NCBI GenBank assembly: GCA_963977445.1
Contig: CAXBPH010000024.1
Coordinates: forward strand, 1 to 41,478
Length of the DNA: 41,478 nucleotides
Origin: an uncultured bacterium
Lineage (GTDB): Bacteria > Hydrogenedentota > Hydrogenedentia > Hydrogenedentales > JAEUWI01
Reading direction: 5' to 3'
The notes under the pieces: generated by a model
Told to the model about the DNA's origin: nothing
The model's database searches: none
The model's input: the letters and a program-made list of their open reading frames with translations, nothing else
Shown here: positions 2,851 to 17,518 of the stretch, in pieces
Position numbering within the stretch: the stretch's first letter is position 1
Layout: the number at the start of each line of letters is the position of its first letter
Program-made: the position numbers and the translations under genes

Positions 2851-3118
2851 CGGCGTCGTCTCATTGAATCGACCGCCATAAGCTGGCGTATGGAAAAACT
2901 TCGGGTGGCCGTCCATATTTCGTAACGCTCCTTGGGGGAAACAGGGATGGCCATATTTTTGAGAGGAAGTGAACCATGAAAATGCTAGCTTCAACGTGTG
3001 AATCGTTGTCGCGGGTGAGGGCTTGACGGTTAACACAGATTTCATGGCTGCGTTCACTTCACCCATTGTCCAGAAATTGTGGCACATTGCTCGGTCCTTT
3101 TATTACGACTTCCTGTGT

Positions 3119-6100
3119 CTATCGCCCGGCACCTTTCACGGGTGTGAGGTGGAGGCCCCGTACGTCGGCGAGTTCTTTGTTGAGGGGGCCGTCGGGACGG
3201 AGGAGTATGCGGTTCACACCGGCGCGGAGCGTTAAGGTGCCGCTGGGCTGTTCCGTGAAGCGATCGTAGCCGCCCGTGTCGGGCACTTCGCCGCGGGTCT
3301 GACTGCCTTCGGTTTCGATGAGGTAAAAATCGCCTGCAGATTCGTCATCGGCGGCCAGCGTGACGGTCACGTCGTAGGTGCCCGCGTGGGGCACGTCGAC
3401 CTGCCATTCGACCAGGTCTTCGGCGACAACCCAGGGGGCCAACACGTCGAGGGTGGGGCGGTAGGCCAGACGCTGTCCGAAGACGGTGGCTTTGCTGGCG
3501 GGCAAATGAATTTCACCGTTCTCCTTCGGCGTGAGGGCGACTACGGCGTTGCCCGCGTTACCCACCTGCATCAACTCCTCCGCACGCCAGGGGAGGGTCC
3601 GGTCGGCCGCTTCCTTGCGCACCTGGGCGATAAGGGTTGGCTCGACGGGCGGTGCCACGTTGCCCCAGGCCCGGCGGACGTAGCTGAGCACACTGGCGAG
3701 TTGTTCGTCGTCGTAGACGCCAAAGGAAGGCATGCTGAGATTCCAGGTCTGGTCGTTGACCACCACGGGGCCATAGAGGCCATGGAGGACGACGCGTGCG
3801 ATGCGTTCGGGCGGGCCACTTACCCATTCACTGCCGGCCAGGGGCGGGGCCACACCGGGCACGCCGCCGCCGTGGGGCTGATGGCAGGCGGTGCAGGCCA
3901 TGGCATAGAGTTCCTGACCGGCCAACACGCGGGCCTTCTGGACGTCGGTGAGGGGCGATGCATTCCGGGTGAGGGTGTCGGGAAGTTTGGCGCCGGGCCA
4001 GGTGAATTGATTCAAGGCGCGGAGCACTTTTTCGCGGGTGGCCACATCGGCGTTCCCCATGAGGGCGGTCAGGGTGACGGGCTCTTTTTCCAAGGTGAAG
4101 GGCTGGGGATAGCGGATTTGTGCGAAGGCATGTAGCAGGGCATCGCGTTGTGCCATGCCGTCGGCCGGGGTACCTTCGTAGAGATCGAAAAGGGCGGCAA
4201 CGCGTGCAGGTTCGGCCTCTTCGAGGACACACTGGGCCAGGAGGGAAAGGAAGGTGGGATTGTCTACCTTGCGCGCGGTCCATTCCTGGAGGAATTCGAG
4301 TTCATGGCCCTGCAGGCCCGAAGCCACGGCGGTCATGAACAAGGGACTCGATTCCCCGGCAACGAGATCGGCGAGAGTGGTCCGGGCTTCCGGTGCGTCG
4401 AAGGCACCCAGGCTCAGGGCGAGTTGCAGGCGCACGCCCGCACTGCTATCGGTGCTGTGTTCGAGTAGGTCGGGGAGCAGGGTGGGCTCGCCCTCTGACA
4501 GGCGAATGGCCGCTGCCCGCACCCGTTCATCTGTGCTTTTCAGTGCGATGCTGCAGGTGTCGGGATCCAACGCGTTGAGCCCATCGAGGGTCCAGAGGGC
4601 GTGAAGTTGCGCGAGGGGGGCGCCCGTTTTTACCAGCTTTTGCAAGAGGGGGATTGTCTTGGGGTCTGCCCCTTCGATGAGGAGACGCTGGGCCGTCAGG
4701 CGATGCCATCCATTCGGGTGGGCGAGGGTTTTAACCCGTTCTTTCGTCGATGCCGTGGACAGTTTGGGAGAGCGGCGGTCGATGGGCTCGTCTTCTGCGA
4801 CGATGCGCCAGATGCGGCCGAGGTCGTTACCCTGACTGAGATCGCGGTCTTCAATCTGCTTGGTGAGCCAGGGCACCATGAAGATGACATGCTCAATGAT
4901 GCCGTGATACATGTCCGCCACATAGAGGGCCCCATCGGGCCCAACGCGGGCATTGACGGGGCGAAAGCGCTCGTCCGTGGACGCCAGAAATTCCTGTTCC
5001 TCCGGATAAAAACGGGTGGCCTGGGGCGCGATACCGTCATCGAGTTTCAAACGTCCGAGCAAATGGCCGCCCGACTCCGGGACGAAGACATTGCGGTGTG
5101 CATCGGCAGGGTATTGGTGCCCATCGTAGAAACAGGTGCCGCTCGCAATCGTGTAGGTGCGCAGGCGGCCATCATCGCGCAGCTCCAGGGCGCCGAGGGT
5201 GACGGCGGGGGTCACACGGATGGGAAAGACTTCCTGGCCCTGGGGCGCGATGTCCACATTCACCCCAAAGGCGTTGCGGTCGATACCGCCCCGTTCAAAA
5301 ACGCGGCGCACGTGGGGGTTGCGCAGCAGGTATTCGGCAGGAATGTAATCGCCAAAGAGCGCCCGGTTTTCGTAGCACGTCATGAAGCGGCCCGTCTCGT
5401 CGAAAGTCACGCCAAACTGACCCCGTTTAACGGTTTCCTCTTCAACCAGTTTGCCGTCCTTCCATTGGTAGCGGGTCGTCCAATCGGCGCAATGAAGCCA
5501 ATTGTCGATGCCATAGCGGAGGCCGTTGGCCGTGTGTTGGGGATTGCCCGCTTTTCCCATTTCGCCCACTTCGGTGCGACGGTCCGCGCGTAGATCGCCA
5601 TCCGTGTCTTCGCAGAACCACAGGGTCGGCGGCTCCTGCAAAAGGATGCCCCCCTTCACAAAGGCAAAGGAGCGCGGCATGACAAGTTCGTCCATGAAGA
5701 CCGTGCTCGTGTCGGCCTTGCCATCTCCATCGGTGTCTTCGAGCACCACAACACGACAAATCGGCGCATCTTCGTCGCTGCCATAGACGTCGCGCATATA
5801 GCCCTGGTATTCCACTACCCAGATGCGCCCATCGGGGTCAAACTCAAAAAAGATGGGGTTGTGCACCAGGGGTTCGGCCGCCACAAGTTCCACCCGATAG
5901 CCCGGCGCAACTTGAAAGGTTTTTTGCTCTTCTTCCGCCGTGAGCACCGGCGCCGGGGGCACTTCGATGCGCTCCAGCAGGGCTTCGCCCTTTTCCCAGT
6001 CTGCCCACCCCGTCAGTGCGGACGGGGGGCGAACGCGGGGCCGATCTTTGGGCACGGCATCCTGCGCCAGGGCACTGCCCGAACCGGTGAGCATCAGGGC

Positions 6101-6151
6101 GGCCAATAGAAGACGATGACGGATGGGGGCGGAAAAGACAGCTATAGTCAC
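3119..6151 (-). CDS. PVC-type membrane-bound dehydrogenase domain / HEAT repeat / cytochrome c protein with C-terminal CBM-like domain
   Basis: Signal peptide; FQVAPGYRVELVAAEPLVHNPI, LEDTDGDGKAD, FRPVNARVGPDGALYVADMY, GRIWRI propeller motifs; HEAT repeats; CTACH heme motif with distal MPSF. Confidence 0.85.
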   Translation of the reverse strand: MTIAVFSAPIRHRLLLAALMLTGSGSALAQDAVPKDRPRVRPPSALTGWADWEKGEALLERIEVPPAPVLTAEEEQKTFQVAPGYRVELVAAEPLVHNPIFFEFDPDGRIWVVEYQGYMRDVYGSDEDAPICRVVVLEDTDGDGKADTSTVFMDELVMPRSFAFVKGGILLQEPPTLWFCEDTDGDLRADRRTEVGEMGKAGNPQHTANGLRYGIDNWLHCADWTTRYQWKDGKLVEEETVKRGQFGVTFDETGRFMTCYENRALFGDYIPAEYLLRNPHVRRVFERGGIDRNAFGVNVDIAPQGQEVFPIRVTPAVTLGALELRDDGRLRTYTIASGTCFYDGHQYPADAHRNVFVPESGGHLLGRLKLDDGIAPQATRFYPEEQEFLASTDERFRPVNARVGPDGALYVADMYHGIIEHVIFMVPWLTKQIEDRDLSQGNDLGRIWRIVAEDEPIDRRSPKLSTASTKERVKTLAHPNGWHRLTAQRLLIEGADPKTIPLLQKLVKTGAPLAQLHALWTLDGLNALDPDTCSIALKSTDERVRAAAIRLSEGEPTLLPDLLEHSTDSSAGVRLQLALSLGAFDAPEARTTLADLVAGESSPLFMTAVASGLQGHELEFLQEWTARKVDNPTFLSLLAQCVLEEAEPARVAALFDLYEGTPADGMAQRDALLHAFAQIRYPQPFTLEKEPVTLTALMGNADVATREKVLRALNQFTWPGAKLPDTLTRNASPLTDVQKARVLAGQELYAMACTACHQPHGGGVPGVAPPLAGSEWVSGPPERIARVVLHGLYGPVVVNDQTWNLSMPSFGVYDDEQLASVLSYVRRAWGNVAPPVEPTLIAQVRKEAADRTLPWRAEELMQVGNAGNAVVALTPKENGEIHLPASKATVFGQRLAYRPTLDVLAPWVVAEDLVEWQVDVPHAGTYDVTVTLAADDESAGDFYLIETEGSQTRGEVPDTGGYDRFTEQPSGTLTLRAGVNRILLRPDGPLNKELADVRGLHLTPVKGAGR

Positions 6152-6190
6152 AGTGTGTTCCTCGCAGAGCGTATGGGAAAAGGATTGGGG

Positions 6191-7642
6191 CTATTTCGAC
6201 AACCGATCGAGGATATTCTTCGTGATACGTTCCACCTCGGGGTCGCCACCACGGAGGCCATGGGCCCAATCCGTCGTGCCCGACGTAAAGACCGTGCCGC
6301 CCTGAGGTTTGGTGTAGACGCCGAGACACGCGGCCCCGGTGCGGCCCTTCTCCCATTTCTCATACCACTCACTGTCGCCCGGATGCCACCGTGCAGGCGC
6401 GGTGCTGAGCACGGTAAAGGTCTCGGGCGTTCCGTCGCGGTAGGTCGGCGTGGGGAGGCCATCATTCCACTCAAGTTCGCAGCCATCGCACTCATAGCCG
6501 ACGATGGTGTTTTTCCCGCCGAAGCTATCGTCCCGTTTCAGGTCAGTGCCTTCAAAGATCCAGTGGTCGGGCCGGTGCACCGTGAAGGCACCGCTGCCAT
6601 CCATGAATTGGTCGTGGCTCTTGTGAAAACCACCCCACAAAAAGCCGACGCCCGTGAGTTCGTTCTCCGGGCGCTTCACCAGGTGGTGGCTCCACAGCGA
6701 CGTGAGCAAGGTGTAGTCTCCCGTAGCGAAGACGGGGTCTTTGAAATAGTTTTCCTTCCAACAGACCAGCGCGCGACCTTCATCTTCGCTACGCACCTGC
6801 CAGCAGCAGGTGTTGCCACTGAAGAAGGCCACATTGCCGCCACCGGCGATAAAGGCCTCCAGGTTGTCCCGCATGGGGGTGGACCAATACTCATCGTGGC
6901 CCACGCTCAATACCAGCCGGTAATTCTCCAGCAGTTCCGGACGAAATTCCAGGTCGGAATTTACGGCATAATCGAGTTCTATGGCATTGCGCTCGGCCCA
7001 TTGAATAAAGGGATGCTCCCAGTTGGCGAACTGGCTCGACGGGGGGCGGTCGAAGGACACCCGGTTGCCCTGGAGGCCCGCCCGCCCGTTGTAGGCATAG
7101 AGGCTGGAGCCGCCCCAGTTGTTGTAGGCATTGTAGGTGTTGGTCGTTAGCTGGAGAAGAATCTTCGAGTTCTTACCGGGCTCGGCGGCGCGGACGACAA
7201 AGAAACAACTCGACGTGGCGGTACGTTGGCCCCGTTGGACAAAACGACCGCCCCCATCGGCTGCCCGCAAGGTGACCTGATAATAGCCACTGCGCCATTC
7301 CGCAGGGATGGCCACGCGGACCGATTCCGGCCACCCACATCCGTGGGACGACGCCTTCTCCGGCACCGGGAGATTCTGCCCGGGAATGCCCTTCTGGCTC
7401 CACACCGATTCCGCGGTCTCGCCGAGTCGGGTAATCTCCGCTTCAAAGGTTGCCGCTCCCGTCGAGACATGGAGGGTCACCTCCTCGCCGGCCACGACAC
7501 TGAGTTGTCCCGCGTAGCCTTCGATAAACAGGGGGGCTGCCCCATCGGCCATCGCTGTAGAGGAAAAAACGCCCGCCACGAGCGTTGCGCACAGCATGGC
7601 GAGTGCCATGGGAAAGCGGAATAGGGAGGACCATTGCTTCAT
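6191..7642 (-). CDS. Secreted N,N-dimethylformamidase beta-subunit family domain protein (DUF6605-like)
   Basis: TNTYNAYNNWGGSSLY, VSFDRP, LSVGHDEYWS, FFSGNTCCWQVR, VGYECDG motifs; ATG at 7642 after GGAG, followed by a signal peptide. Confidence 0.8.
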   Translation of the reverse strand: MKQWSSLFRFPMALAMLCATLVAGVFSSTAMADGAAPLFIEGYAGQLSVVAGEEVTLHVSTGAATFEAEITRLGETAESVWSQKGIPGQNLPVPEKASSHGCGWPESVRVAIPAEWRSGYYQVTLRAADGGGRFVQRGQRTATSSCFFVVRAAEPGKNSKILLQLTTNTYNAYNNWGGSSLYAYNGRAGLQGNRVSFDRPPSSQFANWEHPFIQWAERNAIELDYAVNSDLEFRPELLENYRLVLSVGHDEYWSTPMRDNLEAFIAGGGNVAFFSGNTCCWQVRSEDEGRALVCWKENYFKDPVFATGDYTLLTSLWSHHLVKRPENELTGVGFLWGGFHKSHDQFMDGSGAFTVHRPDHWIFEGTDLKRDDSFGGKNTIVGYECDGCELEWNDGLPTPTYRDGTPETFTVLSTAPARWHPGDSEWYEKWEKGRTGAACLGVYTKPQGGTVFTSGTTDWAHGLRGGDPEVERITKNILDRLSK

Positions 7643-7852
7643 AGGGTGTTGCTCCAGTTTTGTGCATGAAGGCACCGACGGGGCGTCCCGTAGTTGGTCA
7701 CCCAATCGTGTTCCCGGCGTAAGCCTGCCTCAGCATTACACCGCCGCCTTCTCTCCGACATTCGTTAAATGATAGTAGAGGCTATGAGGCGATAGCATTT
7801 CAAGGAGCGAGTGATATTTGTTCGGTGACGCTTTAGATTGCACCGGGGGAGC

Positions 7853-7930
7853 TTCGGTACAGTCACCCCCGATGACGTCATTGTTTCACTGACGTGCGGA
7901 TGCGTTGTTTCATACGGGGGATACTGTCCC
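7853..7930. repeat. 78-bp palindromic repeat, copy 1
   Basis: 72/78 identical to 9589..9666; ends GGTACAGTCACCCCCG...CGGGGGATACTGTCCC form an imperfect inverted repeat. Confidence 0.85.
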
Positions 7931-8025
7931 TGTCGTGCGATGGCTTTTACTGGTACAGAGAGCCAGCCCATGCCCCATCTTGGCGGTGCGCTGTTTCATA
8001 GCGGAGTCAGCCGGGTGCCGCAGGG

Positions 8026-9402
8026 CTATTCTGAATGAACGCCACGCCAGACGATGTCTCCGTGGACAAAATTATGCTGGCCACCGTCGTCCGTTCCGTT
8101 CCGCCCGACACTGTAGAGCAGAAAGCTATCTCCATTTGGTCTGTAAATAAACGGCATACCGCTGAAGGGGTCCGTAAGGGTGGCTTCTGGAAATTGCTCG
8201 GTAAGCACATCAAGTGTTTCAGGCGGAATGGCAAACTGCTCCAGCGTCAGGCCGAGCTGTAGCAATTGGAGGAGGGCTTCGTGGCGGGCTTGTGAGCCGA
8301 GCGTCGACGGCAAGGATTGCGCGAGCTGCCAGGTATAGGGCGCGAATCCAACGTCCAGCGTTTCATAGTGCTGAAGTGCTTCATAATAGGGGAGAAGGGC
8401 AACGTTCGCGATACGGGTGCCCACTTCGGAAGCATTCGAAAGGTCCCGTTTAATCCAAGGGCGCGCCAGAGGGCTCGAAAACACAAATTGACTGGCTTTT
8501 TGTCGCAATCCCGAGGAGGAAAAGTAAATGGTACGATTCATATTGGAATAACGATCGGCCCAATCGCCCTCCAACAACGTTGCAATATGATTTACATAGG
8601 TGTTCCTGTTTTCCACCAATGTCGGCAGGAGTGGTGCGCGACCTGGATCCTTTTGGACTTCCAAAAAAATTCGCGCTACCTCATTCTCACCCATCATACC
8701 CGGTGGAAAGGCATCCAGAATGGCATGGTAGGTAATCATGGCGCAGCCATATCGCGTGAACTGCGAGATGAGGTTGGGTTCCGGTGCCATGGCCGCAGCA
8801 AACAGGAAGCCTGTCGCTATATCAGCTGCCGCAGCTTCGCCATCACCCGATCGGGCCCGATAGACAATATTCAACGCAAGAAACCTGGCGCTATCCCGTG
8901 CTTCGCGGAGGTGTTCCATGTCCATCGTTTCTGGATAGGGCGGAACGGCGGCCATGGGGCCACCCAGGGCGGAGACCCGCCGAAGTTCGGCCAGAAATTC
9001 TTTATGACCGTTCAGAAAGTTGTCCATACGATCAATGTCTTCGGGAGCCAGCGCTTCCCACGTTTCCGCATCGTGCCAGGTTTGGTAGACGATATCCCAT
9101 TCATCGCCGTTGACTTCATTTTTCTTACGCAGGAAGAAGGACTCCCAGGCGGCGATTGTGTCCAGAGCCGGTTGTAGTTCTGAGCGGGGTAGGCGCAACG
9201 TATCGTCGTCTTTTTCAGAGATTGCCAGGGAAAGTTGGTTGTGGAAAAAGACTTCCGGTGGAACCGTAAGTGTGGCCAGGGTCGCCGCGCTACGCCGGTC
9301 CGTGTCTACGACAAAGAACACCAATCCAATCGAAGTAAAGACAAGGAAGAGCAGCAGTGTCCGTTGAGATCCGAATCGATTTCGTCGCCGATGTTTTCCC
9401 AT
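8026..9402 (-). CDS. Hypothetical membrane-anchored protein with GspG-like C-terminal motif
   Basis: Basic N-terminus plus one TM segment (start MGKHRRR at 9402); C-terminal DPFSGMPFIYR...LLYSVGRNGTDDGG motif. Confidence 0.7.
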   Translation of the reverse strand: MGKHRRRNRFGSQRTLLLFLVFTSIGLVFFVVDTDRRSAATLATLTVPPEVFFHNQLSLAISEKDDDTLRLPRSELQPALDTIAAWESFFLRKKNEVNGDEWDIVYQTWHDAETWEALAPEDIDRMDNFLNGHKEFLAELRRVSALGGPMAAVPPYPETMDMEHLREARDSARFLALNIVYRARSGDGEAAAADIATGFLFAAAMAPEPNLISQFTRYGCAMITYHAILDAFPPGMMGENEVARIFLEVQKDPGRAPLLPTLVENRNTYVNHIATLLEGDWADRYSNMNRTIYFSSSGLRQKASQFVFSSPLARPWIKRDLSNASEVGTRIANVALLPYYEALQHYETLDVGFAPYTWQLAQSLPSTLGSQARHEALLQLLQLGLTLEQFAIPPETLDVLTEQFPEATLTDPFSGMPFIYRPNGDSFLLYSVGRNGTDDGGQHNFVHGDIVWRGVHSE

Positions 9403-9588
9403 AGGTGGCCCCTTCTTGCCCTGTGCCGCGGGCTCTGTGTATAAGGTTCGGGCCCGCCCTATCTCCAAGTATATACATCCACGCCCCGCAATGAACAAAG
9501 GCGGGCTCTGCCTTTTGTGTTCTTTGCGTTCTTTGAGGTTTGATATTTTCCACGCAACCAGGCGGCCCGTGCCCTTGGTGCGCGGGGT

Positions 9589-9666
9589 TTCGGTACAGTC
9601 ACCCCCGCGGACGTCGTTGTTTCACTGACGTGTGGATACGGTGTTTCATACGGGGGATACTGTCCC
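9589..9666. repeat. 78-bp palindromic repeat, copy 2
   Basis: Direct repeat of 7853..7930. Confidence 0.85.
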
Positions 9667-9778
9667 GGCAGGGTGGCGACACGCAGTAGGTTAACTGGAC
9701 GGAATCTGTAACGACTCTATCGTTTTAAGTCGATTCGTCCGTCGCTATTGTATTTGCCGAAAAAACTGGTATAGACAC

Positions 9779-9817
9779 AAAAAAGGCCCAAATCACAGGT
9801 GCTGTGATTTGGGCCTT
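9779..9817 (-). terminator. Intrinsic terminator, original tRNA-His terminator displaced by the integration
   Basis: AAGGCCCAAATCACAG-GTG-CTGTGATTTGGGCCTT hairpin with a U-tract on the minus strand, just past the duplicated tRNA 3' end. Confidence 0.8.
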
Positions 9818-9826
9818 GATTAGTAG

Positions 9827-9877
9827 ATGGTACCTGAGGACAGGATCGAACTGTCGACCTCTGGAACCACAATCCAG
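9827..9877 (-). repeat. Attachment site: 51-bp duplicate of the tRNA-His 3' half
   Basis: Identical to 17441..17491 (anticodon arm through CCA). Confidence 0.95.
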
Positions 9878-9979
9878 ACGGGGCGGTGTCTCCCTGTGTA
9901 TCAGAGTGTACAATAGCCCCGAAAAATAAGGGTGTTAATTCTCCCTTTGTATCCCTTTATCGGCTGTGATAAACTAAAA

Positions 9980-10000
9980 GTGGACTTAATATGGACTTAA
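9980..10000. promoter_or_regulatory. Putative integrase arm-type binding sites (left)
   Basis: GTGGACTTAATATGGACTTAA (TGGACTTAA twice, 11 bp apart), identical to 17362..17382. Confidence 0.7.
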
Positions 10001-10028
10001 GTACGATAAACGCAGAGGGAAATAGGCT

Positions 10029-11279
10029 ATGAAAATCACAGAGAAAGCGGTAAAAGACCTACGCCCGGCTGAAAATAAAAAGCCCTACGAAGTGCGCTAT
10101 GAGGACACGCAAGGCTTCCTAGTTCGAGTTCAGCCAACGGGGCGCATAACGTACTATTTCGAGTACCGCAATTCAGACAAAAAGCGCCAACGCATCAAAT
10201 TGGGCGTATATCCCACTCTGAAAGTTTCAGAGGCGCGGGATGCAGCCGCGATACTAGCGGGTGAGGTGGCGAAAAAGGGCGACCCTGCTGCTGACAAGCG
10301 GGCAGAGCGCCATGCAGTCGCCCCGGCTGACCTGACCTTGCACCAATTCATCGAAGAGCACTACGGCCCGTGGGCTCAAACGAATCTAAAATCCCATGCG
10401 CCTACCCTCACCCGGCTACGGGCTGGATTCGCTCCCTTGCTGTCAAAGCGGCTTGTCGACCTCACGGCACGGGACTTTGAACAGCATCGGCTAGACCGAT
10501 TGAAGCATAAGCTGGCAACGAAGAAGAAGCCACCGACCCCGCAGACCCTCAACCGTGACCAGCAGACTCTTAGGGCTGCACTCACCCGCGCTATAGATTG
10601 GAAGCTTATCGACAGCAACCCGCTTGATAGGGTCAAAAAGGCCAAGGAGGACAGGAACCGCAAAATCCGGGCGTTATCAGCCAACGAGGAGGCCGATATT
10701 CTGGACACCTTCACGCGGCGCAGGCAAAAGGCGGTAGACGGGCGACTCGTGAATTTCCAGAAAGGTGCCAGGAAACAACCCAAAATTCCACGGTACCTGA
10801 ATTTTCTGGAACCGCTATTCGTGCTCAGTCTGGAGACAGGCATTAGGCGCGGTGAAGCCGTAGGGCTGCTCTGGAGTGATATCGATTTCGCAGGGCGCAC
10901 GTTGACGGTACGGGGTGAAGGTGCGAAGTCTGCACAGACCCGCACTGTTCCCCTGAGTACTAAAGCAAAAATGGCGTTGGTCCAATGGCGCGCCCAAGTG
11001 CGGGGGCAAGGTCGGGTATTCATGGGTCTGACCGTGGACAGCCTCAAAGGCCAATGGGTGCGACTGCTCAAGGATGCCAAGGTGACCGGCATTCGCTGGC
11101 ACGACCTACGCCACACCTTCGGCACCCGTTGCGCCGTGGGTGGGGTGCCCGTGGTTACCATTCAACGGATGATGGGCCATGCATCGATTACGACCACGGC
11201 GCGGTACCTGCACGCCACCGACGAAGATATGAGGAACGCTATGGACCGGCTCGAAAAAGCAGCAGGGGGCGGAGCATGA
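10029..11279 (+). CDS. int: Tyrosine recombinase/integrase with N-terminal arm-DNA-binding domain
   Basis: Catalytic motifs TGIRRGE, GAKS, HDLRH, MGH, TTARY; N-terminus GFLVRV..TG..TYYFEYR typical of P4-like arm-binding domains. Confidence 0.95.
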   Translation: MKITEKAVKDLRPAENKKPYEVRYEDTQGFLVRVQPTGRITYYFEYRNSDKKRQRIKLGVYPTLKVSEARDAAAILAGEVAKKGDPAADKRAERHAVAPADLTLHQFIEEHYGPWAQTNLKSHAPTLTRLRAGFAPLLSKRLVDLTARDFEQHRLDRLKHKLATKKKPPTPQTLNRDQQTLRAALTRAIDWKLIDSNPLDRVKKAKEDRNRKIRALSANEEADILDTFTRRRQKAVDGRLVNFQKGARKQPKIPRYLNFLEPLFVLSLETGIRRGEAVGLLWSDIDFAGRTLTVRGEGAKSAQTRTVPLSTKAKMALVQWRAQVRGQGRVFMGLTVDSLKGQWVRLLKDAKVTGIRWHDLRHTFGTRCAVGGVPVVTIQRMMGHASITTTARYLHATDEDMRNAMDRLEKAAGGGA

Positions 11280-11959
11280 ACGAAGAGCGAATAAGCCGAG
11301 CGGCAGAAATGATAGATTCGGCACTTATTGGTGCGTGGGGTATATCTGAATCGGGCGACGCTAGCCATATACCCGCACTAGAATGGCGCTACGAAAGAAT
11401 GCGGGATTACATCTACACAGCAGGCGAACTGCTTTTGAATACAGGGGATGCAGCCCGAGAGGTACGGGCTACCCTCGATTGGGTGGCCGGGCACCTGCCA
11501 AGCGTTGAAGATTTTACGCAGACCAAGGCAAGGGTCACAATGAATCCACGTATGCTGGACCCTGAAATGATGCACAACAGGAGTATGCTCCGTTCGGCAC
11601 AATGGCTCCTGAGTCAATGGGAGCGGCTTTCGATGGCAGCGTCTACGCTTAGGGATATCGCGCACTCTGAGGCCAACAAGGACCCGATGCCGGAAGAAGC
11701 AAAGGGATTGACGGATTCTGCAAAGAAATTGCTACGCGGCGCGCGACGGATTGAGTCACACACGGAGCCGGTCAAGTGGGTTGAGCTAACTGAGGAGGCT
11801 CGTTTCGAAGAACACACAAACATAACAAGTAGGACGACTTTAACGGGCTTGAAGCTGCTCGAAATGATAGGCAAGGGGAATAATTCAAAGTGGCGTCTGA
11901 CACCTCGCGGCGAAGTTGTTGCGCAGTACTTTAGGGATACGGAATGGAAGAAGTGGTAA
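11276..11959 (+). CDS. Hypothetical protein with possible C-terminal winged-helix domain
   Basis: ATGA overlap with the integrase stop; C-terminus LKLLEMIGKGNNSKWRLTPRG resembles a wHTH wing. Confidence 0.65.
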   Translation: MNEERISRAAEMIDSALIGAWGISESGDASHIPALEWRYERMRDYIYTAGELLLNTGDAAREVRATLDWVAGHLPSVEDFTQTKARVTMNPRMLDPEMMHNRSMLRSAQWLLSQWERLSMAASTLRDIAHSEANKDPMPEEAKGLTDSAKKLLRGARRIESHTEPVKWVELTEEARFEEHTNITSRTTLTGLKLLEMIGKGNNSKWRLTPRGEVVAQYFRDTEWKKW

Positions 11960-12072
11960 GTCTCTTACTACCCTCTTACCAGTAAGAGGCTTCGTGCCAA
12001 CGGCTAAAATTTCATGTACGATCTCCTTAGCTAAACCGGAATCACCCGGCGCTAGAAGATGGAGACTGTACA

Positions 12073-12297
12073 ATGGATGCCTTCGAAGATCGAGCACTGA
12101 CTGAGGATGAAGCGGCGGAATTCCTTGGAATGTGCAAGGGCACGCTTCGCACTGCCCGCAGCTTGGGCAAGCGCCCGAATCGTATTGAAAGCCCACCCTA
12201 TTTCAAAATCGGCCCCCGCTGTGTACGCTACAGTTTGAAAGACCTTCACGAATACCGTGAGCGTTTCCGCGTGACCGACGGGGGGCACGCGACATGA
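12073..12297 (+). CDS. AlpA/Xis-like helix-turn-helix protein
   Basis: LTEDEAAEFLGMCKGTL...PPYFKIGPRCVRYSLKDL; RBS GGAG upstream. Confidence 0.85.
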   Translation: MDAFEDRALTEDEAAEFLGMCKGTLRTARSLGKRPNRIESPPYFKIGPRCVRYSLKDLHEYRERFRVTDGGHAT

Positions 12298-14600
12298 CCT
12301 GTCCGAACAAAACGACCCCCGACGCGGTAGGACGCGGCGAGGGCCAAGCAAACTATTTACTCCACAGAGATGATACCCCCAATTGGGGGATACCGTCAAG
12401 CTGGGTTTTCATCCCCATCGAAGGCAAAGCACCCCGCGTAAAGGACTGGCCGAATCACCCCGGCCTGTCTCCCGAGGGCGTCGCGCGGCTGCTGGCTGCT
12501 GGGCAAAACGTTGGTCTACTGACCGGCGAACGGTCTGGGCGTCTGCTGGTGGTCGACATCGACGGCGAACGGCCCGAGGGCCTGCCCGATACCGTGACCG
12601 TCAAGACCGGCAGCGGCGGCACGCACCTGTACTACACCGTGCCGGAGGGCGTGGACATCCCGAAGGCGAACAAGGTCAACCACGTGGCGCCGGGCGTAGA
12701 TATCCGGTATACAGGCGGGCAAGTGGTATATCCCGGCAGCGTTCACCCCGGTACCGGCGCGCTGTATGAATGGGCACCAGGCAAGGCACCGGGAGAAATT
12801 CCCATGGCCGAGGTACCCGGCTGGGTGATTGCTGCGCTGCTGGCCCCGAAGCCCCAAAAGCAGGCCCCGACGTTGCCCCGAGAGCCACGACCGCAGACCG
12901 GGCAGGGGTATCATGCCACCGCACTACAGGGCGCGGCACAGGACATCCGTGACGCAGCACCGGGCACCCGAAATGCTACGCTGAATACGAAGTCCTACGC
13001 GCTGGCCGGGCTGGGCATCGACGCGGGCACAATTGCGGATCACCTGCTACCGGCTGCGCTCGATACTGGGCTGCCCGAAGGCGAGGCCCGCGCAACGATT
13101 CACAGCGGCACCGTGGCGGGACAGGCGGCACCGCGTGACGTTTCGCGGCCGGAAAAACGGCCGGCAGAATCTGTGCCGTCTGTAAGTGGGCAGGACAGGA
13201 ATGAAGTGTCTTGCCCTGCTCCCCGTGCGCTGGCCGATAAGTATCTTACGGACATTCACCCATGTGGGACGTTGCAGTGGTGGCGTGGCGACTGGTGGAT
13301 CTACGACCATGCAACCGGCTGGCGGGCCGTCAAGACACCCGAGCTCTATGCCATCTTGAGCGAAGCTCTAAAGGATTGGTCCTATATCCACACCACAGCC
13401 CGTGGTGACGCGGAGGAGAGGACCGTCTATGCCATCTTGCGGGAATCACTCCTGCGGGACGTTGTCGGACAGCTACGCCAGCCGGGGCGCTCGATACTCT
13501 CGGATGATTCAGACGCCCCCTTATGGCTGGACGGCACGCCGTCGGCATCGGACTATCTTCCGGTGCAGAATGGGATCGTCCACCTGCCAACCCGGCAGCT
13601 ACGGCAGCACAGCCCGAAGTTGTTTTGTCCGCACCGGCTGGCGTTTCCCTTCGAACCCACGGCACACCCCGAGCAGTGGATAAAGTTTTTGCGTCAATTG
13701 TGGCCCGACGATGAGCAGTCGATAGAGCTACTGAAGGAATGGTTTGGCTACCTGCTGACCAGCTCTACACGATTCCATAAAATGATGCTCATGGTCGGTC
13801 CGAAGCGGTCCGGCAAGGGTACCATTGCCCGCATCGCTGAGGCGACGATAGGCGCGGCTTCCTGCTGTTCACCCACTCTCGGCGGGCTATCCCAGAACTT
13901 CGGAGCGGCGGCTATTGTGGGCAAGCGGCTGGCCGTTGTAGGCGATGCTCGGCTGTCCGGCAGGGCTGACGCGGCCATCGTTACGGAACGGCTCCTGTCG
14001 CTGTCTGGTGGCGATTTGCAGACCATTCCACGGAAGCACCAATCAGACTGGATCGGGACTCCCGAAACAAAGTGGATGCTTTTATCGAACGAGCTGCCCC
14101 GGCTACCCGATTCGTCTGGTGCGCTGGCATCCCGCTTCCTATTGTTGCAGACCTCCGAATCGTTCTATGGGCGCGAAGACCACGGCTTGGAAGCACGACT
14201 ACTGGCAGAGCTGCCCGGCATCTTCAATTGGGCCCTTGATGGTCTGGCGCGGCTCCAGGAACGTGGACGATTCTCCGAATTGGCAGCGGCCCGGGACAGT
14301 ATGGAGGCGCTCGAAGACTTGGGCAGTCCTGTGGCGGCCTTCGTCCGGCACTCCTGCGAAGTTGGACCTGGCTACACCACACCCACGTCTACGTTGTATG
14401 AGGCCTTCCGGCGGTGGTGTGGCGATGAAGGGATCGACCACGTATCGACCAATGCGATATTTGGCCGGGATTTGTCTGCGGCATTCCCAGCTATCAGAAA
14501 AATCACTTTTCGTAGCGGCGATGGACGTAGAGAGAAAAATTACAGCGGAATTCGCGTAGTGGCACCAGCTGTCACTAGTGACTTTCCATTGCATGCGTAG
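12294..14600 (+). CDS. Bifunctional primase-polymerase (Prim-Pol) fused to P4/D5-type SF3 helicase
   Basis: VVDID, TGSGGTHLYY, GVDIR..GGQVVYPGSVH (AEP); GTRNATLN (PriCT-like); Walker A GPKRSGKGT; SNELP motif C; C-terminal LYEAFRRWC..EG wHTH. Confidence 0.92.
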   Translation: MTCPNKTTPDAVGRGEGQANYLLHRDDTPNWGIPSSWVFIPIEGKAPRVKDWPNHPGLSPEGVARLLAAGQNVGLLTGERSGRLLVVDIDGERPEGLPDTVTVKTGSGGTHLYYTVPEGVDIPKANKVNHVAPGVDIRYTGGQVVYPGSVHPGTGALYEWAPGKAPGEIPMAEVPGWVIAALLAPKPQKQAPTLPREPRPQTGQGYHATALQGAAQDIRDAAPGTRNATLNTKSYALAGLGIDAGTIADHLLPAALDTGLPEGEARATIHSGTVAGQAAPRDVSRPEKRPAESVPSVSGQDRNEVSCPAPRALADKYLTDIHPCGTLQWWRGDWWIYDHATGWRAVKTPELYAILSEALKDWSYIHTTARGDAEERTVYAILRESLLRDVVGQLRQPGRSILSDDSDAPLWLDGTPSASDYLPVQNGIVHLPTRQLRQHSPKLFCPHRLAFPFEPTAHPEQWIKFLRQLWPDDEQSIELLKEWFGYLLTSSTRFHKMMLMVGPKRSGKGTIARIAEATIGAASCCSPTLGGLSQNFGAAAIVGKRLAVVGDARLSGRADAAIVTERLLSLSGGDLQTIPRKHQSDWIGTPETKWMLLSNELPRLPDSSGALASRFLLLQTSESFYGREDHGLEARLLAELPGIFNWALDGLARLQERGRFSELAAARDSMEALEDLGSPVAAFVRHSCEVGPGYTTPTSTLYEAFRRWCGDEGIDHVSTNAIFGRDLSAAFPAIRKITFRSGDGRREKNYSGIRVVAPAVTSDFPLHA

Positions 14601-14662
14601 TAAAAAAAATAAGTTTTTATATGAAGACACAGTAGGCTGGCACCGGTGACAGCTGGTGCCAC
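14559..14662. other. Candidate replication origin of the element
   Basis: 22-bp inverted repeats (20/22 complementary) at 14559..14580 and 14641..14662 flanking an A/T-only tract at 14601..14622. Confidence 0.55.
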
Positions 14663-14686
14663 CCTACTCCTGAAAGGACCCGAATC

Positions 14687-15067
14687 ATGAAATTCTGGCA
14701 AATATTGAAGCAATACCCAACCTTAACAGCAAACGGATTCACGGACCCGACAGACCCCAACTTTGCCAAGTGGCGTGCAGAGCTGACCACGCGGCCCGAC
14801 GACATCGAAGCCGCTCAGCAATGGGTGAGTCAGTTCCCGAAATCCACGACGGCACGGCTATCCAGCTATCACGCAAAACACATCCTCGAATACGACACCG
14901 GGCGCTACGTCGACGAAGGCTCATTTATCGTGGGCGCGATTCTGGCAGGCTTCACGCCGGGCACGTCGGCACACGGCCCGGCTGGCTTCTTAAATATCGA
15001 CCGTCGCGCACTGAATCGCTTTATCAAATCGAAACCGGCGCTGGTCCTGATTGGACTGGCGGCATGA
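14687..15067 (+). CDS. Hypothetical phage/satellite protein
   Basis: 126 aa, RBS AAGGA; SSYHAKHILE..GRYV.EGSFI..AILAGF motif, recalled from primase-linked small proteins. Confidence 0.7.
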   Translation: MKFWQILKQYPTLTANGFTDPTDPNFAKWRAELTTRPDDIEAAQQWVSQFPKSTTARLSSYHAKHILEYDTGRYVDEGSFIVGAILAGFTPGTSAHGPAGFLNIDRRALNRFIKSKPALVLIGLAA

Positions 15068-15096
15068 CTCACAACCAACCCAACGAAGGAAAAACC

Positions 15097-15723
15097 ATGA
15101 GCGTAGAAAAACACCGAGACCAACTCACCCGAGCAGCCGCAGACCTTGAGGCACTGACCGCCCGCAGGACCGCAGCACAGCAGGCATGGACGGCGGCTAT
15201 CGTTGCCGATGACCAGAAGGCCGAGGTCAAGACGGCCAAGGCGCTGTCCGACATCGACGCAGCCCTTAGCCTGGCCGAATCTAAGATCGCCGTTGTGCGG
15301 CGCTGCCTGCATGATGCCGAAGTCGCAGACATCCCGGACCGTGCGGTCGAGGCGCTGACAGAGTACCGAGCGCTTGCAGACGAGGCCGCAGAATTGGCCC
15401 GTGACGTAATGAAGCACTGGCGGGAGGGGCACAACAGGGCACAGCGAATCCGTGAGCTTGACGGGCAGTGTAGGGCCATTGCTGGCGAATTCCACGAACA
15501 TACCCGCGAATTGGGTCACTATACACCGCTGACCGGCGCACGATTCCCGGTGGAGCTGGCCGAGCTTGGGCGTCTGTACGGGCAGTTCCAGAAATTCGGG
15601 GCTAAGTGGCAGCCATCCGTCGCGACACTCCTACCAGCTAAGCGGGCGCGGCCAGTCGTCGAACCCGTCGAACCTGTCGAACCCGAAACCACAGAGACCG
15701 AAAGCGAGGACACCGCAGCATGA
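15097..15723 (+). CDS. Coiled-coil hypothetical protein
   Basis: ATG after GAAGGA; Ala-rich helical heptads; acidic PVEPVEPVEPE tail. Confidence 0.7.
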   Translation: MSVEKHRDQLTRAAADLEALTARRTAAQQAWTAAIVADDQKAEVKTAKALSDIDAALSLAESKIAVVRRCLHDAEVADIPDRAVEALTEYRALADEAAELARDVMKHWREGHNRAQRIRELDGQCRAIAGEFHEHTRELGHYTPLTGARFPVELAELGRLYGQFQKFGAKWQPSVATLLPAKRARPVVEPVEPVEPETTETESEDTAA

Positions 15724-15803
15724 GCATCACCACGGCCATGGACGACTTCATTCGAAGCAACCCGGGCAACGTTTTTTCTAACCCGAAAGGAATATCACCA
15801 TGA
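15720..15803 (+). CDS. 27-aa translationally coupled micro-ORF
   Basis: MSITTAMDDFIRSNPGNVFSNPKGISP; ATGA overlaps with both neighbours. Confidence 0.4.
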   Translation: MSITTAMDDFIRSNPGNVFSNPKGISP

Positions 15804-16060
15804 AACGATTCACCCCCGAAAGAACAGCAGCCCTGCCCCCCATGGACAGCGGCAGAAATAAGCACCTCCACAGCATGAACAACGATGACCTCATGCGCAT
15901 TCACATCGGCATGGACGATGCAGAGATTCATCGCGTCAACCTGATTGCGGCCCAGACTGCCCGCGATTCGATTGCCGTACTTTGTGATATAAAGCAGTTT
16001 GCCAACGTGACGCAGATCCCCGGCTGGCAGTGGGTGCCCGTTGCCGGTAGTCGCGATTGA
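15800..16060 (+). CDS. Hypothetical protein
   Basis: 86 aa, RBS AAAGGA, in the element operon. Confidence 0.6.
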   Translation: MKRFTPERTAALPPMDSGRNKHLHSMNNDDLMRIHIGMDDAEIHRVNLIAAQTARDSIAVLCDIKQFANVTQIPGWQWVPVAGSRD

Positions 16061-16077
16061 CTCCGGAGGCTTGAAAG

Positions 16078-16557
16078 ATGGCAACAGTAAAACGCAGCAC
16101 GGCGCAGCGTGAAGCCGACCTGCCCGAAATCGCAACCGATTGGGTGATGGGCTTCACACTGCGGGAAATCGCGGCCCGACTGAATGCCCGACGCGACTAC
16201 TCGCTATCGTTCCAGACCATCGCCAACGACGTGAAAACCATCGTGGCACGCTGGCGTGAAGCTTCCACGGCTTCGGTCGCAGAGGCCAAGGCCGTGGAGC
16301 TGGCCCGGCTTGCCGAAGTCGAACGGCAGGCATGGCAGGCTTGGGAGGCATCGCAGCAGGAAGCCGTCCGGACGCTGTCTGAGGAATCCAGCGGCACGGA
16401 TGGCGGGCGCACTCGGCACCAGACCATCGCCGAGGTCAAGCGAGATTCCAGGTACCTGGCAATTATCCGGGACACAATCTCGGCTCGCATAAAATTGCTT
16501 GGGCTTGATGGCGACTTCGCCGAACGGCTCGAAAAACTCGAAAGGAAAGCATCATGA
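16078..16557 (+). CDS. HTH protein, terminase small subunit-like
   Basis: N-terminal HTH (GFTLREIAARL...SFQTIANDV), helical body, RIKLLGLD; RBS GGAGG. Confidence 0.6.
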   Translation: MATVKRSTAQREADLPEIATDWVMGFTLREIAARLNARRDYSLSFQTIANDVKTIVARWREASTASVAEAKAVELARLAEVERQAWQAWEASQQEAVRTLSEESSGTDGGRTRHQTIAEVKRDSRYLAIIRDTISARIKLLGLDGDFAERLEKLERKAS

Positions 16558-16733
16558 AAAACCTATTTGAGCGACTACGTAGGCTCGAAAAACGAATGGT
16601 ACCCGTCGAACCGGCGGCAATATTCGTCATGGCACCGCCTCCCGGCATCGTGGGCAAGAACGTGGACCTCACCCAGTTCTCACCGGCCAGCAATGGCAAG
16701 CCCGGCTGTCTGGTGACATTCCGCAGACCGTAG
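16554..16733 (+). CDS. 59-aa hypothetical protein
   Basis: MKNLFERLRRLEKRM...; ATGA overlap with the previous gene; followed by a hairpin. Confidence 0.6.
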   Translation: MKNLFERLRRLEKRMVPVEPAAIFVMAPPPGIVGKNVDLTQFSPASNGKPGCLVTFRRP

Positions 16734-16741
16734 GTCTAATG

Positions 16742-16769
16742 GCCCGGCTGGCATCGCTGCCAGCCGGGC
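16742..16769. terminator. GC-rich hairpin ending the element operon
   Basis: GCCCGGCTGGCA-TCGC-TGCCAGCCGGGC perfect 12-bp stem; no clear U-tract. Confidence 0.6.
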
Positions 16770-16775
16770 GCACTC

Positions 16776-16804
16776 TTGACAAGCACGACGGCTGGGCGTA
16801 TTCT
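16776..16804 (+). promoter_or_regulatory. Sigma70-type promoter
   Basis: TTGACA-17 bp-TATTCT. Confidence 0.7.
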
Positions 16805-16983
16805 ACCAGTCGGGCTACCGGATTCCCCGGCAAGCTAAGCGGCCCCCGAAGGTGCTACCAACACCAGCGAGGGCCTAGACTCGGATGCAGATGAGTGCAA
16901 ACGAATCCTACGCGGGATTATACCCGTATGGCGTGATAGATTCACCCGCACCCGCCTGTATTCTCACCTTGGAGAATGCACCC

Positions 16984-17271
16984 ATGATTATCACTACCAC
17001 CCTCGAATGCCAAGACCTCGAAGATATCTTTGTCCAGCATCTTGCGGAGCAAAGCCACCACTTCGGCGATATAGACGAATACGTCCGCTCGCTGATTTAC
17101 GCGGCATTCGATGCCCACCCGGATTTCTGGCGTTGCTCCAATCCCGAATGCCTTGAAGCCGTCTACCCCGTTATGACGACCCGGCAGGTATCCGGCCCGG
17201 CCTTCAAGCGGTACGCAGTCGACACGCGGCCCTGTGAGGTATGCCCGGCCTGTGGGACTGCTGCCCCATAG
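16984..17271 (+). CDS. Small Cys-rich (zinc-ribbon-like) hypothetical cargo protein
   Basis: ATG after GGAGA; CSNPEC and CEVCPAC motifs; own promoter and terminator. Confidence 0.6.
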   Translation: MIITTTLECQDLEDIFVQHLAEQSHHFGDIDEYVRSLIYAAFDAHPDFWRCSNPECLEAVYPVMTTRQVSGPAFKRYAVDTRPCEVCPACGTAAP

Positions 17272-17295
17272 CCTACCTATCACCAGCAGCCAGAG

Positions 17296-17327
17296 CGCCC
17301 CGAATCCTGACCGATTCGGGGCGTTTT
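17296..17327 (+). terminator. Intrinsic terminator
   Basis: CGCCCCGAATC-loop-GATTCGGGGCG followed by TTTT. Confidence 0.75.
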
Positions 17328-17361
17328 GCATTCCGTGGAGAATGGCACGAAATCGGGCATT

Positions 17362-17382
17362 GTGGACTTAATATGGACTTAA
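17362..17382. promoter_or_regulatory. Putative integrase arm-type binding sites (right)
   Basis: Identical to 9980..10000. Confidence 0.7.
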
Positions 17383-17399
17383 ACCCGTATTTCAAAGAG

Positions 17400-17431
17400 A
17401 AAGGGCGACCACGAATATTCGCGGTCGCCCT
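17400..17431 (-). terminator. Element-supplied terminator for tRNA-His
   Basis: AGGGCGACC...GGTCGCCCT hairpin directly downstream of the tRNA CCA on the minus strand. Confidence 0.65.
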
Positions 17432-17441
17432 GTGTTTATAA

Positions 17442-17518
17442 TGGTACCTGAGGACAGGATCGAACTGTCGACCTCTGGAACCACAATCCAGCGCTCTAAC
17501 CAACTGAGCTACCCAGGC
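17442..17518 (-). tRNA. tRNA-His (GUG)
   Basis: Cloverleaf GCCTGGG...CTGGA-TTGTGGT-TCCAG...GACAG-TTCGATC-CTGTC-CTCAGGT-A-CCA. Confidence 0.95.

Follow-up and report, generated by a model that had tools for sequence, protein, structure and literature searches.

What kind of mobile element occupies the 3′ end of the tRNA-His gene in a bacterium of the phylum Hydrogenedentota, and does it live at the expense of phages? The question is raised by a 41,478-nucleotide stretch of DNA (the window), which is contig C24 in a 94%-complete assembly of 7.1 Mb and 464 contigs (GenBank GCA_963977445.1, contig CAXBPH010000024.1). Within it a run of small genes lies between two exact repeats; we call this element E1, and two related elements in the same genome E2 and E3. 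We propose that E1 is a phage satellite resembling the phage-inducible chromosomal islands (PICIs), that it encodes its own small terminase (TerS), and that the genome contains at least one further TerS-bearing sister of it. We consider this reading fairly probable.

E1 is inserted site-specifically in the 3′ end of tRNA-His. The tRNA gene, with anticodon gtg, was called by ARAGORN and by the Rfam tRNA model (65.5 bits), and the exact 51-nt direct repeats, spaced 7614 nt apart, consist of the last 50 nt of this gene plus one base (Table 1). With both repeats counted the element measures 7,665 bp, for a unit length of 7,614 bp. All of its genes lie in the same orientation, on the plus strand between the attachment (att) repeats, and four-base ATGA overlaps join five pairs of them: int/orf227, the helix-turn-helix (HTH) gene/primase, orf208/mini-ORF, mini-ORF/orf86 and orf159/orf59. 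The core modules were assigned by Pfam and PHROGs scans of 12 E1 open reading frames (ORFs), including both candidate frames of a cargo gene, and by an NCBIfam scan of 11. The translated integrase shows the box I Arg and the motifs HDLRH and ARYLH, and the replicase shows DIDGE, SGGTHLYY and a GPKRSGKGT P-loop; the TIGR01613 match of the replicase is to the P4-family primase C-terminal domain. The 74-aa HTH protein has no match to the AlpA-specific model PF05930. In the same three collections no E1 ORF matches a capsid, portal, tail, holin, connector or large-terminase model. An earlier note on this DNA had described a compact integrative element with exact 51-bp att repeats in tRNA-His, a co-oriented and ATGA-coupled gene run, and an int, AlpA and primase/helicase core lacking a capsid gene; the repeat, ORF, tRNA and profile calls bear out this description.

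Table 1. Features of element E1 and its borders, in positions of the window.
Feature	Coordinates	Strand	Basis or remark
Hairpin + T-run just outside attL, 16 pairs	9783..9817	-	inverted repeat; terminator-like site
attL, 51-bp copy of tRNA-His 3′ end	9827..9877	.	exact direct repeat
Left-arm tandem repeat, 2 x TGGACTTAA, 11-nt spacing	9980..10000	+	candidate arm-type integrase sites
int, tyrosine integrase, 416 aa, arm-binding N-terminal domain	10029..11279	+	PF00589 2.2e-24; PF13356 (Arm-DNA-bind_3) 1.3e-18; phrog_1 2.6e-66
orf227, orphan	11276..11959	+	ATGA-coupled to int; module-specific
AlpA/excisionase-type HTH protein, 74 aa	12073..12297	+	PF12728 HTH_17 28.1 bits (cut-off 27); phrog_66 'excisionase and transcriptional regulator' 5e-4
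Replicase, 768 aa, PrimPol + D5_N + superfamily 3 (SF3) helicase (DUF5906) + Pox_D5 C-terminal	12294..14600	+	Pfam; PHROGs; NCBIfam TIGR01613 1.5e-44
Candidate origin, at and just past replicase 3′ end	14559..14662	.	22-nt inverted repeats (14559-14580, 14641-14662) around 60-nt AT-rich spacer
orf126, orphan	14687..15067	+	sole accessory gene common to E1, E2 and E3; 92% identity to E2, 53% to E3
orf208, orphan, three long helices + disordered acidic/proline-rich tail	15097..15723	+	AlphaFold2 (AF2) model, pLDDT 73; 77% identity to E2
Mini-ORF, 27-codon stub of gene that is 102 aa in E2	15720..15803	+	N-termini alike; E2 has 265 nt more here
orf86, orphan	15800..16060	+	76% identity to E2; no Pfam, PHROGs, NCBIfam or PADLOC match
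orf159, TerS homologue, 159 aa	16078..16557	+	profile homology; synteny in phages; fold
orf59, orphan	16554..16733	+	ATGA-coupled to terS; 93% identity to E2
Promoter-like site before cargo gene, TTGACA-17-TATTCT	16776..16804	+	10/12; consensus match only
Cargo gene, 128 aa, C-terminal CxxC...CxxC	16885..17271	+	frame chosen by dN/dS
Hairpin then TTTTG	17291..17328	+	inverted repeat; terminator-like site 17305-17321
Right-arm tandem repeat, 2 x TGGACTTAA	17362..17382	+	
Hairpin + T-run inside right arm, 13 pairs	17402..17431	-	terminator-like site
attR core inside intact tRNA-His gene (17442-17518, minus)	17441..17491	.	tRNA call + exact direct repeat

Whether E1 exploits phage packaging turns on orf159, which the earlier note had called TerS-like. 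A word-indexed search with this protein returned three proteins: itself, the E2 copy, and one 47% identical, for which the longest contig is 7,713 bp. The 47%-identical TerS is carried by contigs of 7,713 bp and 14,441 bp (P0003, P0155), and P0003 is not found in IMG/VR. A profile built from orf159 and its two closest relatives retrieved far more from 1.84 billion representatives: 5275 proteins with E ≤ 1e-3, of which 2166 reach E ≤ 1e-10 and 23 reach E ≤ 1e-30. All 78 aligned members of the family match PHROG 645, a group labelled 'Rnase E', and Pfam gives scattered weak HTH or sigma-region-4 matches, each in at most 6 of the 78, along with one Terminase_5 match. Scans of genome contigs with the TerS alignment and with the replicase yielded no confirmed relative, and a scan of metagenome contigs with the TerS alignment yielded just six distant ones (31-37% identity).

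The position of these relatives in viral genomes is informative. Scanning IMG/VR gave 138 relatives, and 80 loci were kept. Of the 76 loci with 2 kb or more of sequence downstream, 75 have a large terminase (TerL) homologue that begins on the same strand no more than 3 kb further downstream, at a median gap of 466 nt; many of these loci are near-duplicates of one sample series and should not be counted as 75 independent cases. Manual inspection of 13 of the 80 showed a TerL Pfam match (Terminase_6N/6C, Terminase_3 or TerL_nuclease) in the next large ORF at 10 of them, and a portal gene after it at 6. Neither tblastn of orf159 nor blastn of the whole of E1 matched the phage collection, and it was via a central family member that the gene was found in 19 cultured phages of 42-47 kb, infecting Bacteroides, Parabacteroides, Alistipes, Croceibacter and Elizabethkingia. 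The family gene lies three small genes upstream of the annotated TerL gene in Elizabethkingia phage TCUEAP2 and one small gene upstream in Parabacteroides phage PDS1. Within the source phylum a TerS match occurs in 2 of 135 genomes, the source genome and G102, a member of the same order. A prophage of G102 carries, in order, ParB, TerS, an IS110 transposase, a Terminase_6N TerL and Mu-F, and the protein in the TerS position shares 42% identity with orf159 across 140 aa (E 1e-29). As a separate observation, the IS110 element of this prophage (G102:C696:13000-32999, 2882-13251) is inserted between terS and terL, and the 818-aa TerL has a LAGLIDADG (intein-like) insert.

Based on profile homology, the PHROG 645 match, synteny with terL and the G102 homologue, orf159 is a true homologue of phage small terminases. 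AF2 models it (pLDDT 75.5) with an HTH spanning residues 8-38, a long helix over residues 45-104 and two C-terminal helices. The top 10 Foldseek matches in the PDB are all Thermus phage TerS (G20c, P74-26), at E 5e-3 to 5e-2, with the next unrelated match at E 1.0. VIA-align also places G20c TerS first (Z 8.5 over 119 residues), the sole chain of 48,161 with Z ≥ 8, and in BFVD uncharacterised Caudovirales proteins come first, with named TerS proteins at ranks 4 and 5. The structural evidence taken alone is weak, and the assignment is carried by synteny and homology. From the position upstream of terL together with the fold, the PHROG 645 label 'Rnase E' looks like a misnomer for what appears to be a small-terminase family. 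In the 19 cultured phages the annotation of the gene reads 'Rnase E', 'RNA polymerase sigma factor' or hypothetical; the 'Rnase E' label has been copied into phage annotations, and other records say 'RNA polymerase sigma factor' (PQ571267.1, NC_018276.1, OQ116603.1, MN929097.1).

E1 has relatives in its own genome. E2 occupies tRNA-Lys(ttt) and is split over G000:C189 6824-14019 and, for its right end, G000:C370 5377-5584. An exact repeat of 63 bp, in which 49 nt from the 3′ half of the tRNA are joined by 14 nt more, lies on either side of E2, and its length, about 7.5 kb, is inferred across the assembly gap if it is collinear with E1. Its genes run in the order int, ORF, HTH, replicase, followed by homologues of orf126, orf208, orf86, orf159, orf59 and the cargo gene. 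In the packaging and orphan region the two elements share 81-85% DNA identity and proteins that are 74-93% identical. Their int and HTH proteins are 52-54% identical (HTH 54%), and the E2 replicase is a different protein of 592 aa with D5_N and DUF5906 and no PrimPol domain. E3, at tRNA-Pro(ggg) (G000:C56 4375-11623), carries an integrase and a 259-aa ORF, together with a DUF1580/HTH_17 protein, an orf126 homologue (53%), inverted iterons of its own and a PrimPol/D5 replicase that shares 42% identity with the E1 replicase. To judge from these comparisons, E1 and E2, and with them E3, have swapped integrase and replicase modules. Since TerS is not found in 14 other species of the family, 8 of them from the genus, E1 is not ancestral. 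The same genome holds more integrase/AlpA-like and primase-like loci (C165 1267-4027, C89 331-2208, C136 13446-14204), with identities to E1 of 33% for int, 37% for alpA and 32% and 48% for primase, and it seems rich in such islands.

The ratio of nonsynonymous to synonymous substitution rates (dN/dS) between E1 and E2 is 0.11 for int, 0.15 for the HTH gene, 0.22 for orf126, 0.23 for orf59, 0.28 for orf159, 0.41 for orf208 and 0.49 for orf86. For the cargo gene it is 0.58 in the plus frame (66 codons) as opposed to 1.16 in the minus frame (47 codons). From these values we take the orphans to be real genes under purifying selection and read the cargo gene on the plus strand.

Two genes of E2 are not in E1, namely a 102-aa ORF (some 265 nt shorter in E1, where a 27-codon stub is left) and a 92-aa MerR/HTH_17 gene (some 293 nt). 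The earlier note had called the element intact; this appears to hold for the cis sites and core genes of E1, which look intact, and not for these two losses, by which E1 is somewhat reduced relative to E2. The losses could mean that E1 belongs to a satellite lineage and is itself a crippled, immobile derivative fixed in the chromosome, and the exact element was not found a second time outside the source genome. We regard this as unlikely, however, given that the 51-bp att repeats match exactly, both arms carry identical arm repeats, the catalytic motifs of integrase and replicase are present, the remaining ORFs are all open and under purifying selection, and the mini-ORF is ATGA-coupled on both sides. 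The lack of TerS in 8 other species of the genus also fits a recent arrival. Still further from the evidence is a decayed prophage remnant, which we judge very improbable. A tRNA-integrated integrase and one phage-derived packaging gene are what such a remnant could retain, whereas E1 has no structural, lysis or large-terminase gene or pseudogene and its largest unassigned ORF is of 227 aa. Two independent elements, moreover, have the same layout and a similar size, that of E2 being an estimate across the gap, and the accessory proteins have no homologue in 87 TerS-bearing phage and metagenome loci totalling 1.18 Mb.

The preferred reading is E1 as a PICI-like satellite, and the inverted repeats and AT-rich spacer at the end of its replicase gene look like a replication origin. 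The same layout is found past the replicase genes of E2 and E3, built from different repeat sequences: in E2 two copies of GGTGTACCT and two inverted ones surround an AT-rich stretch, and E3 has two copies of ATGCAGTTC and two inverted ones. Repeats and replicase differ in step between the elements, which supports candidate origins that are replicase-specific. In PICIs, too, the origin is described as lying directly after pri-rep (PMC6092414). The only Rfam match apart from the tRNA falls over this origin-like repeat, at 14537-14680 on the minus strand, and is to WsnRNA46 (Wolbachia sRNA 46), with 30.8 bits where the gathering score is 65.3; we take it as a probable chance match driven by the hairpin.

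We propose that infection by, or induction of, a helper phage would switch on the AlpA-type regulator, and that the integrase and the HTH protein would then excise a 7.6-kb circle. The replicase would fire the origin and generate concatemers, after which the TerS of E1 would bind a pac site on the element and recruit a Terminase_6-type large terminase of the helper, so that satellite DNA would be packaged into helper-made heads. [quoted passage not shown]

A number of results weigh against this proposal. No Pfam terminase model matches orf159, its Foldseek template-modelling (TM) score against Thermus TerS is about 0.3, and the VIA-align superposition on G20c TerS has a root-mean-square deviation of 11.1 Å, with generic helical matches within 1 Z. 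E3 shows no TerS up to the contig end, and E1 may be impaired by the loss of the two genes that E2 has kept. As to a helper, the models Terminase_6N, Phage_portal, Phage_capsid, TerL_ATPase and Terminase_3 all gave no match in the assembly, nor did tblastn of 18 TerL, portal and MuF proteins from TerS-family phages match it; a helper would therefore be a phage that is not resident (virulent, as for PICMIs) or one that was not binned. The earlier note had proposed a search of viromes for the element, and an exact 30-mer of the right arm had 0 matches in IMG/VR viral contigs and in JGI metagenome contigs.

Several of these points would fit an alternative in which E1 is a self-replicating integrative island and not a phage parasite, similar to a tycheposon or an integrative mobilisable element, moving by vesicles, transformation or conjugative mobilisation, with the TerS-like protein acting only as a DNA-binding regulator. 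Such an island would need no helper phage in the assembly and no TerS in E3, and 419 of 501 tycheposons with the same integrase/replicase grammar are described as having no packaging genes (bioRxiv 10.1101/2020.12.28.424599). The weak HTH or sigma-like similarity that is all Pfam sees in the orf159 family, and the deposition of some of its members as 'RNA polymerase sigma factor', would also be in keeping with a regulator. The family, however, occupies the TerS position in phages (the 75 of 76 loci above), the gene is under purifying selection in both elements, and Pfam, PHROGs and NCBIfam revealed no relaxase, oriT-type or conjugation gene in the E1 ORFs. We therefore regard a non-phage island as rather unlikely.

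If E1 is a PICI-like satellite, does it belong to a described kind? The PICI core modelled by SatelliteFinder has five parts, an integrase, a regulator (alpA, merR or stl), a primase-replicase, a capsid morphogenesis gene and TerS; elements with four of them are Type B, the median size is 9.5 kb, and tail, holin, portal and connector genes are forbidden (PMC10085698). E1 has four of the five in canonical order (integrase, regulator, primase-replicase, TerS), and no forbidden gene was matched; these parts were assigned by Pfam, PHROGs and NCBIfam plus TerS homology, and SatelliteFinder's TerS profiles may miss orf159. As to the fifth part, no E1 ORF matches a capsid-related model in the three collections, and orf126, orf208 and orf86 could be analogues. 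Gram-negative PICIs are described as having no divergent Stl repressor, with AlpA as the helper-induced activator, and as placing after pri-rep the origin, interference genes, sometimes terS, and then 3′ accessory genes (PMC6092414). Islands such as EcCICFT073 thus resemble E1, on that description, in their co-oriented int, AlpA-type regulator, primase-replicase, origin, interference or orphan genes, terS and 3′ accessory gene, and in the lack of a divergent Stl-type repressor and of structural or lysis genes. Its size, 7.6 kb, is somewhat under the reported 9.5-kb median (PMC10085698). E1 differs in that no capsid-morphogenesis gene is recognisable, that its TerS comes from another family (PHROG 645) which Pfam terminase models do not detect, that its orphan module has no homologues outside the source genome, and that its host belongs to an uncultured lineage.

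The marine VEIMEs, as presented in PMC9618062, are likewise small, with an integrase, AlpA, a primase/helicase, many orphans and no capsid genes, some of them having a TerS closest to that of co-occurring phages. PICIs are defined functionally by induction, excision, replication and high-frequency packaging that depend on a helper, and VEIMEs by concatemers inside particles (PMC9618062); E1 is compared with both by gene content and layout. The PICI-like tycheposons of Prochlorococcus are reported to be tRNA-integrated, flanked by a partial tRNA copy and equipped with a tyrosine recombinase and primase/helicase, as E1 is, and to carry either terS or a capsid gene (bioRxiv 10.1101/2020.12.28.424599). 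Their tRNA-specific integrases and swapped integrase and replication modules are mirrored by E1 (His), E2 (Lys) and E3 (Pro). The preprint, however, describes tycheposons as one evolutionary group in cyanobacteria, to which E1 is compared by architecture, and reports that the PICI-like ones never bring additional cargo (bioRxiv 10.1101/2020.12.28.424599); E1, by contrast, has a 3′ gene that is transcribed separately. The PICMIs of Vibrionaceae share with E1 a minimal size (6.1 kb for the prototype), the int-alpA-prim core and the lack of capsid remodelling genes; their model includes DUF5906 and PF12728 (as one of the AlpA profiles), and packaging of concatemers is given as a plausible route (PMC10803314). 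They integrate next to fis with a core of only int, alpA and prim, and the word 'terminase' does not occur in the main text of PMC10803314, whereas E1 lies in tRNA-His and has its own TerS. The cf-PICIs have capsid, portal, head-tail connector and TerL genes of their own, none of which was matched in E1 by Pfam or PHROGs. With P4-like satellites E1 shares an arm-binding tyrosine integrase at a tRNA, an AlpA/Vis-type HTH protein and the P4-family primase C-terminal domain (TIGR01613). P4, by contrast, has no TerS, and the hijacking genes psu, sid, delta and epsilon have no Pfam or PHROG match in E1.

PICIs, PICMIs and VEIMEs normally have no capsid gene (PMC10085698, PMC10803314, PMC9618062). 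The earlier note had argued for an undescribed family from the missing divergent repressor, capsid and sid/psu genes; these absences do not set E1 apart from described kinds. To the extent that gene content can place it, E1 is not clearly a new family: it fits the description of Gram-negative PICIs except for a recognisable capsid-morphogenesis gene, and it also resembles VEIMEs and PICI-like tycheposons. The kind itself is not new, capsid-less islands with int, AlpA, primase and TerS being known as Gram-negative PICIs, VEIMEs and PICI-like tycheposons. The interest of E1 lies in its co-resident sister elements with exchanged integrase, replicase and origin cassettes, the unique orphan module under selection, the host lineage and the mislabelled TerS family.

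No significant match in Pfam, PHROGs, NCBIfam or PADLOC was found for orf126, orf208, orf86, orf59, orf227 or the cargo protein, orf227 also being dissimilar to the ORFs in the same position in E2 and E3. The PADLOC scan covered seven E1 proteins (the integrase, AlpA-type HTH protein and replicase were left out) and found no defence family, with a generic HTH match for the MerR-like gene of E2 only. Among 5.8 billion proteins orf126 and orf208 have no homologue beyond the source genome. For orf126 there is a weak match to phrog_9576 (1.3e-3), and its nearest Atlas clusters are viral hypotheticals. Of the two ORFs whose folds the earlier note had proposed to compare, orf159 gave Thermus phage TerS first, if weakly, whereas orf208 gave generic helical hairpins, with a best Foldseek match at E 0.18 (ESCRT-III-type hairpins) and a top VIA-align Z of 11.9. 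An Atlas lead to Psu for orf208 (score 0.91, rank 28) was not adopted, neither Psu nor Sid being among the listed fold matches. We think that orf126, orf208, orf86 and orf59 would most likely act on the helper phage, by interference or by support of packaging.

The cargo gene, which the earlier note had taken to be separately transcribed, is indeed likely to be so, to judge from the promoter-like site upstream and the terminator-like hairpin downstream, the latter being the probable terminator of the gene. Its protein has a weak ferredoxin-like match (NF007382, 1.1e-3) that is far under the NCBIfam cut-off. The stretch 16837-16978, covering the cargo promoter region and the gene start, is 76% identical to G000:C301:2812-2953, where the cargo protein has no protein-level match.

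A more comprehensive interpretation can be offered tentatively, as one that is possible but doubtful. In it, E1 and E2 would form a distinct satellite lineage of an uncultured phylum, and orf126, orf208, orf86, orf59 and the 102-aa gene of E2 would constitute a new hijacking or interference apparatus working with a PHROG-645-type TerS. The unit length would be fixed at about 7.5-7.7 kb, so that integral copies fill a helper head of about 40-47 kb, and free exchange of int and replicase/origin cassettes would let sisters hold different tRNA genes in one cell without cross-talk. Unit lengths do cluster, at 7,614 bp for E1, about 7.5 kb (estimated) for E2 and a 7,713-bp contig for the 47%-identical TerS relative; a constraint on packaging size or circular assembly is a possible cause.

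If active, E1 would extend PICI-type phage parasitism to a phylum without cultured members; among 13 papers found to name both 'Hydrogenedent' and 'satellite', none is about phage satellites, judged by title. The two sister satellites offer a natural experiment, in that one genome holds the same packaging and orphan module with a different integrase, replicase and origin. Such a pair should be well suited to studying how competition between satellites is avoided and which genes make up the minimal hijacking set. Recognition of PHROG 645 as a widespread small-terminase family would also be a practical correction for phage and satellite annotation.

The borders of E1 have further features of note. 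Within the 41-kb window the 9-mer TGGACTTAA has four occurrences, against 0.13 expected, and all copies are in the two arms of the element (9981-10000 and 17363-17382). Since the integrase has an Arm-DNA-bind_3 domain, arm-type integrase sites are a fitting reading of these repeats. The hairpin just outside attL is probably the original terminator of tRNA-His, cut off from its gene by the insertion, and the predicted hairpin supplied by the element in its right arm now serves as the tRNA-His terminator. The flanks hold ordinary chromosomal genes (thioredoxin-reductase-like, M23 peptidase, MnmA, flagellin and sulfatase). A query spanning tRNA-His and the right-flank thioredoxin-reductase-like gene was matched in all eight congeners (G003-G010), with the tRNA-His match directly beside the right-flank gene in seven of them and elsewhere on the contig in G004. 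The left-flank genes of E1 do not adjoin tRNA-His in two congeners (about 12 kb examined) or in the others (1.1-1.5 kb), and a clean attB with both flanks was demonstrable in none of the eight. The 3′ side of tRNA-His looks like a variable region in the genus, the genes on its far side differing from those of E1's left flank.

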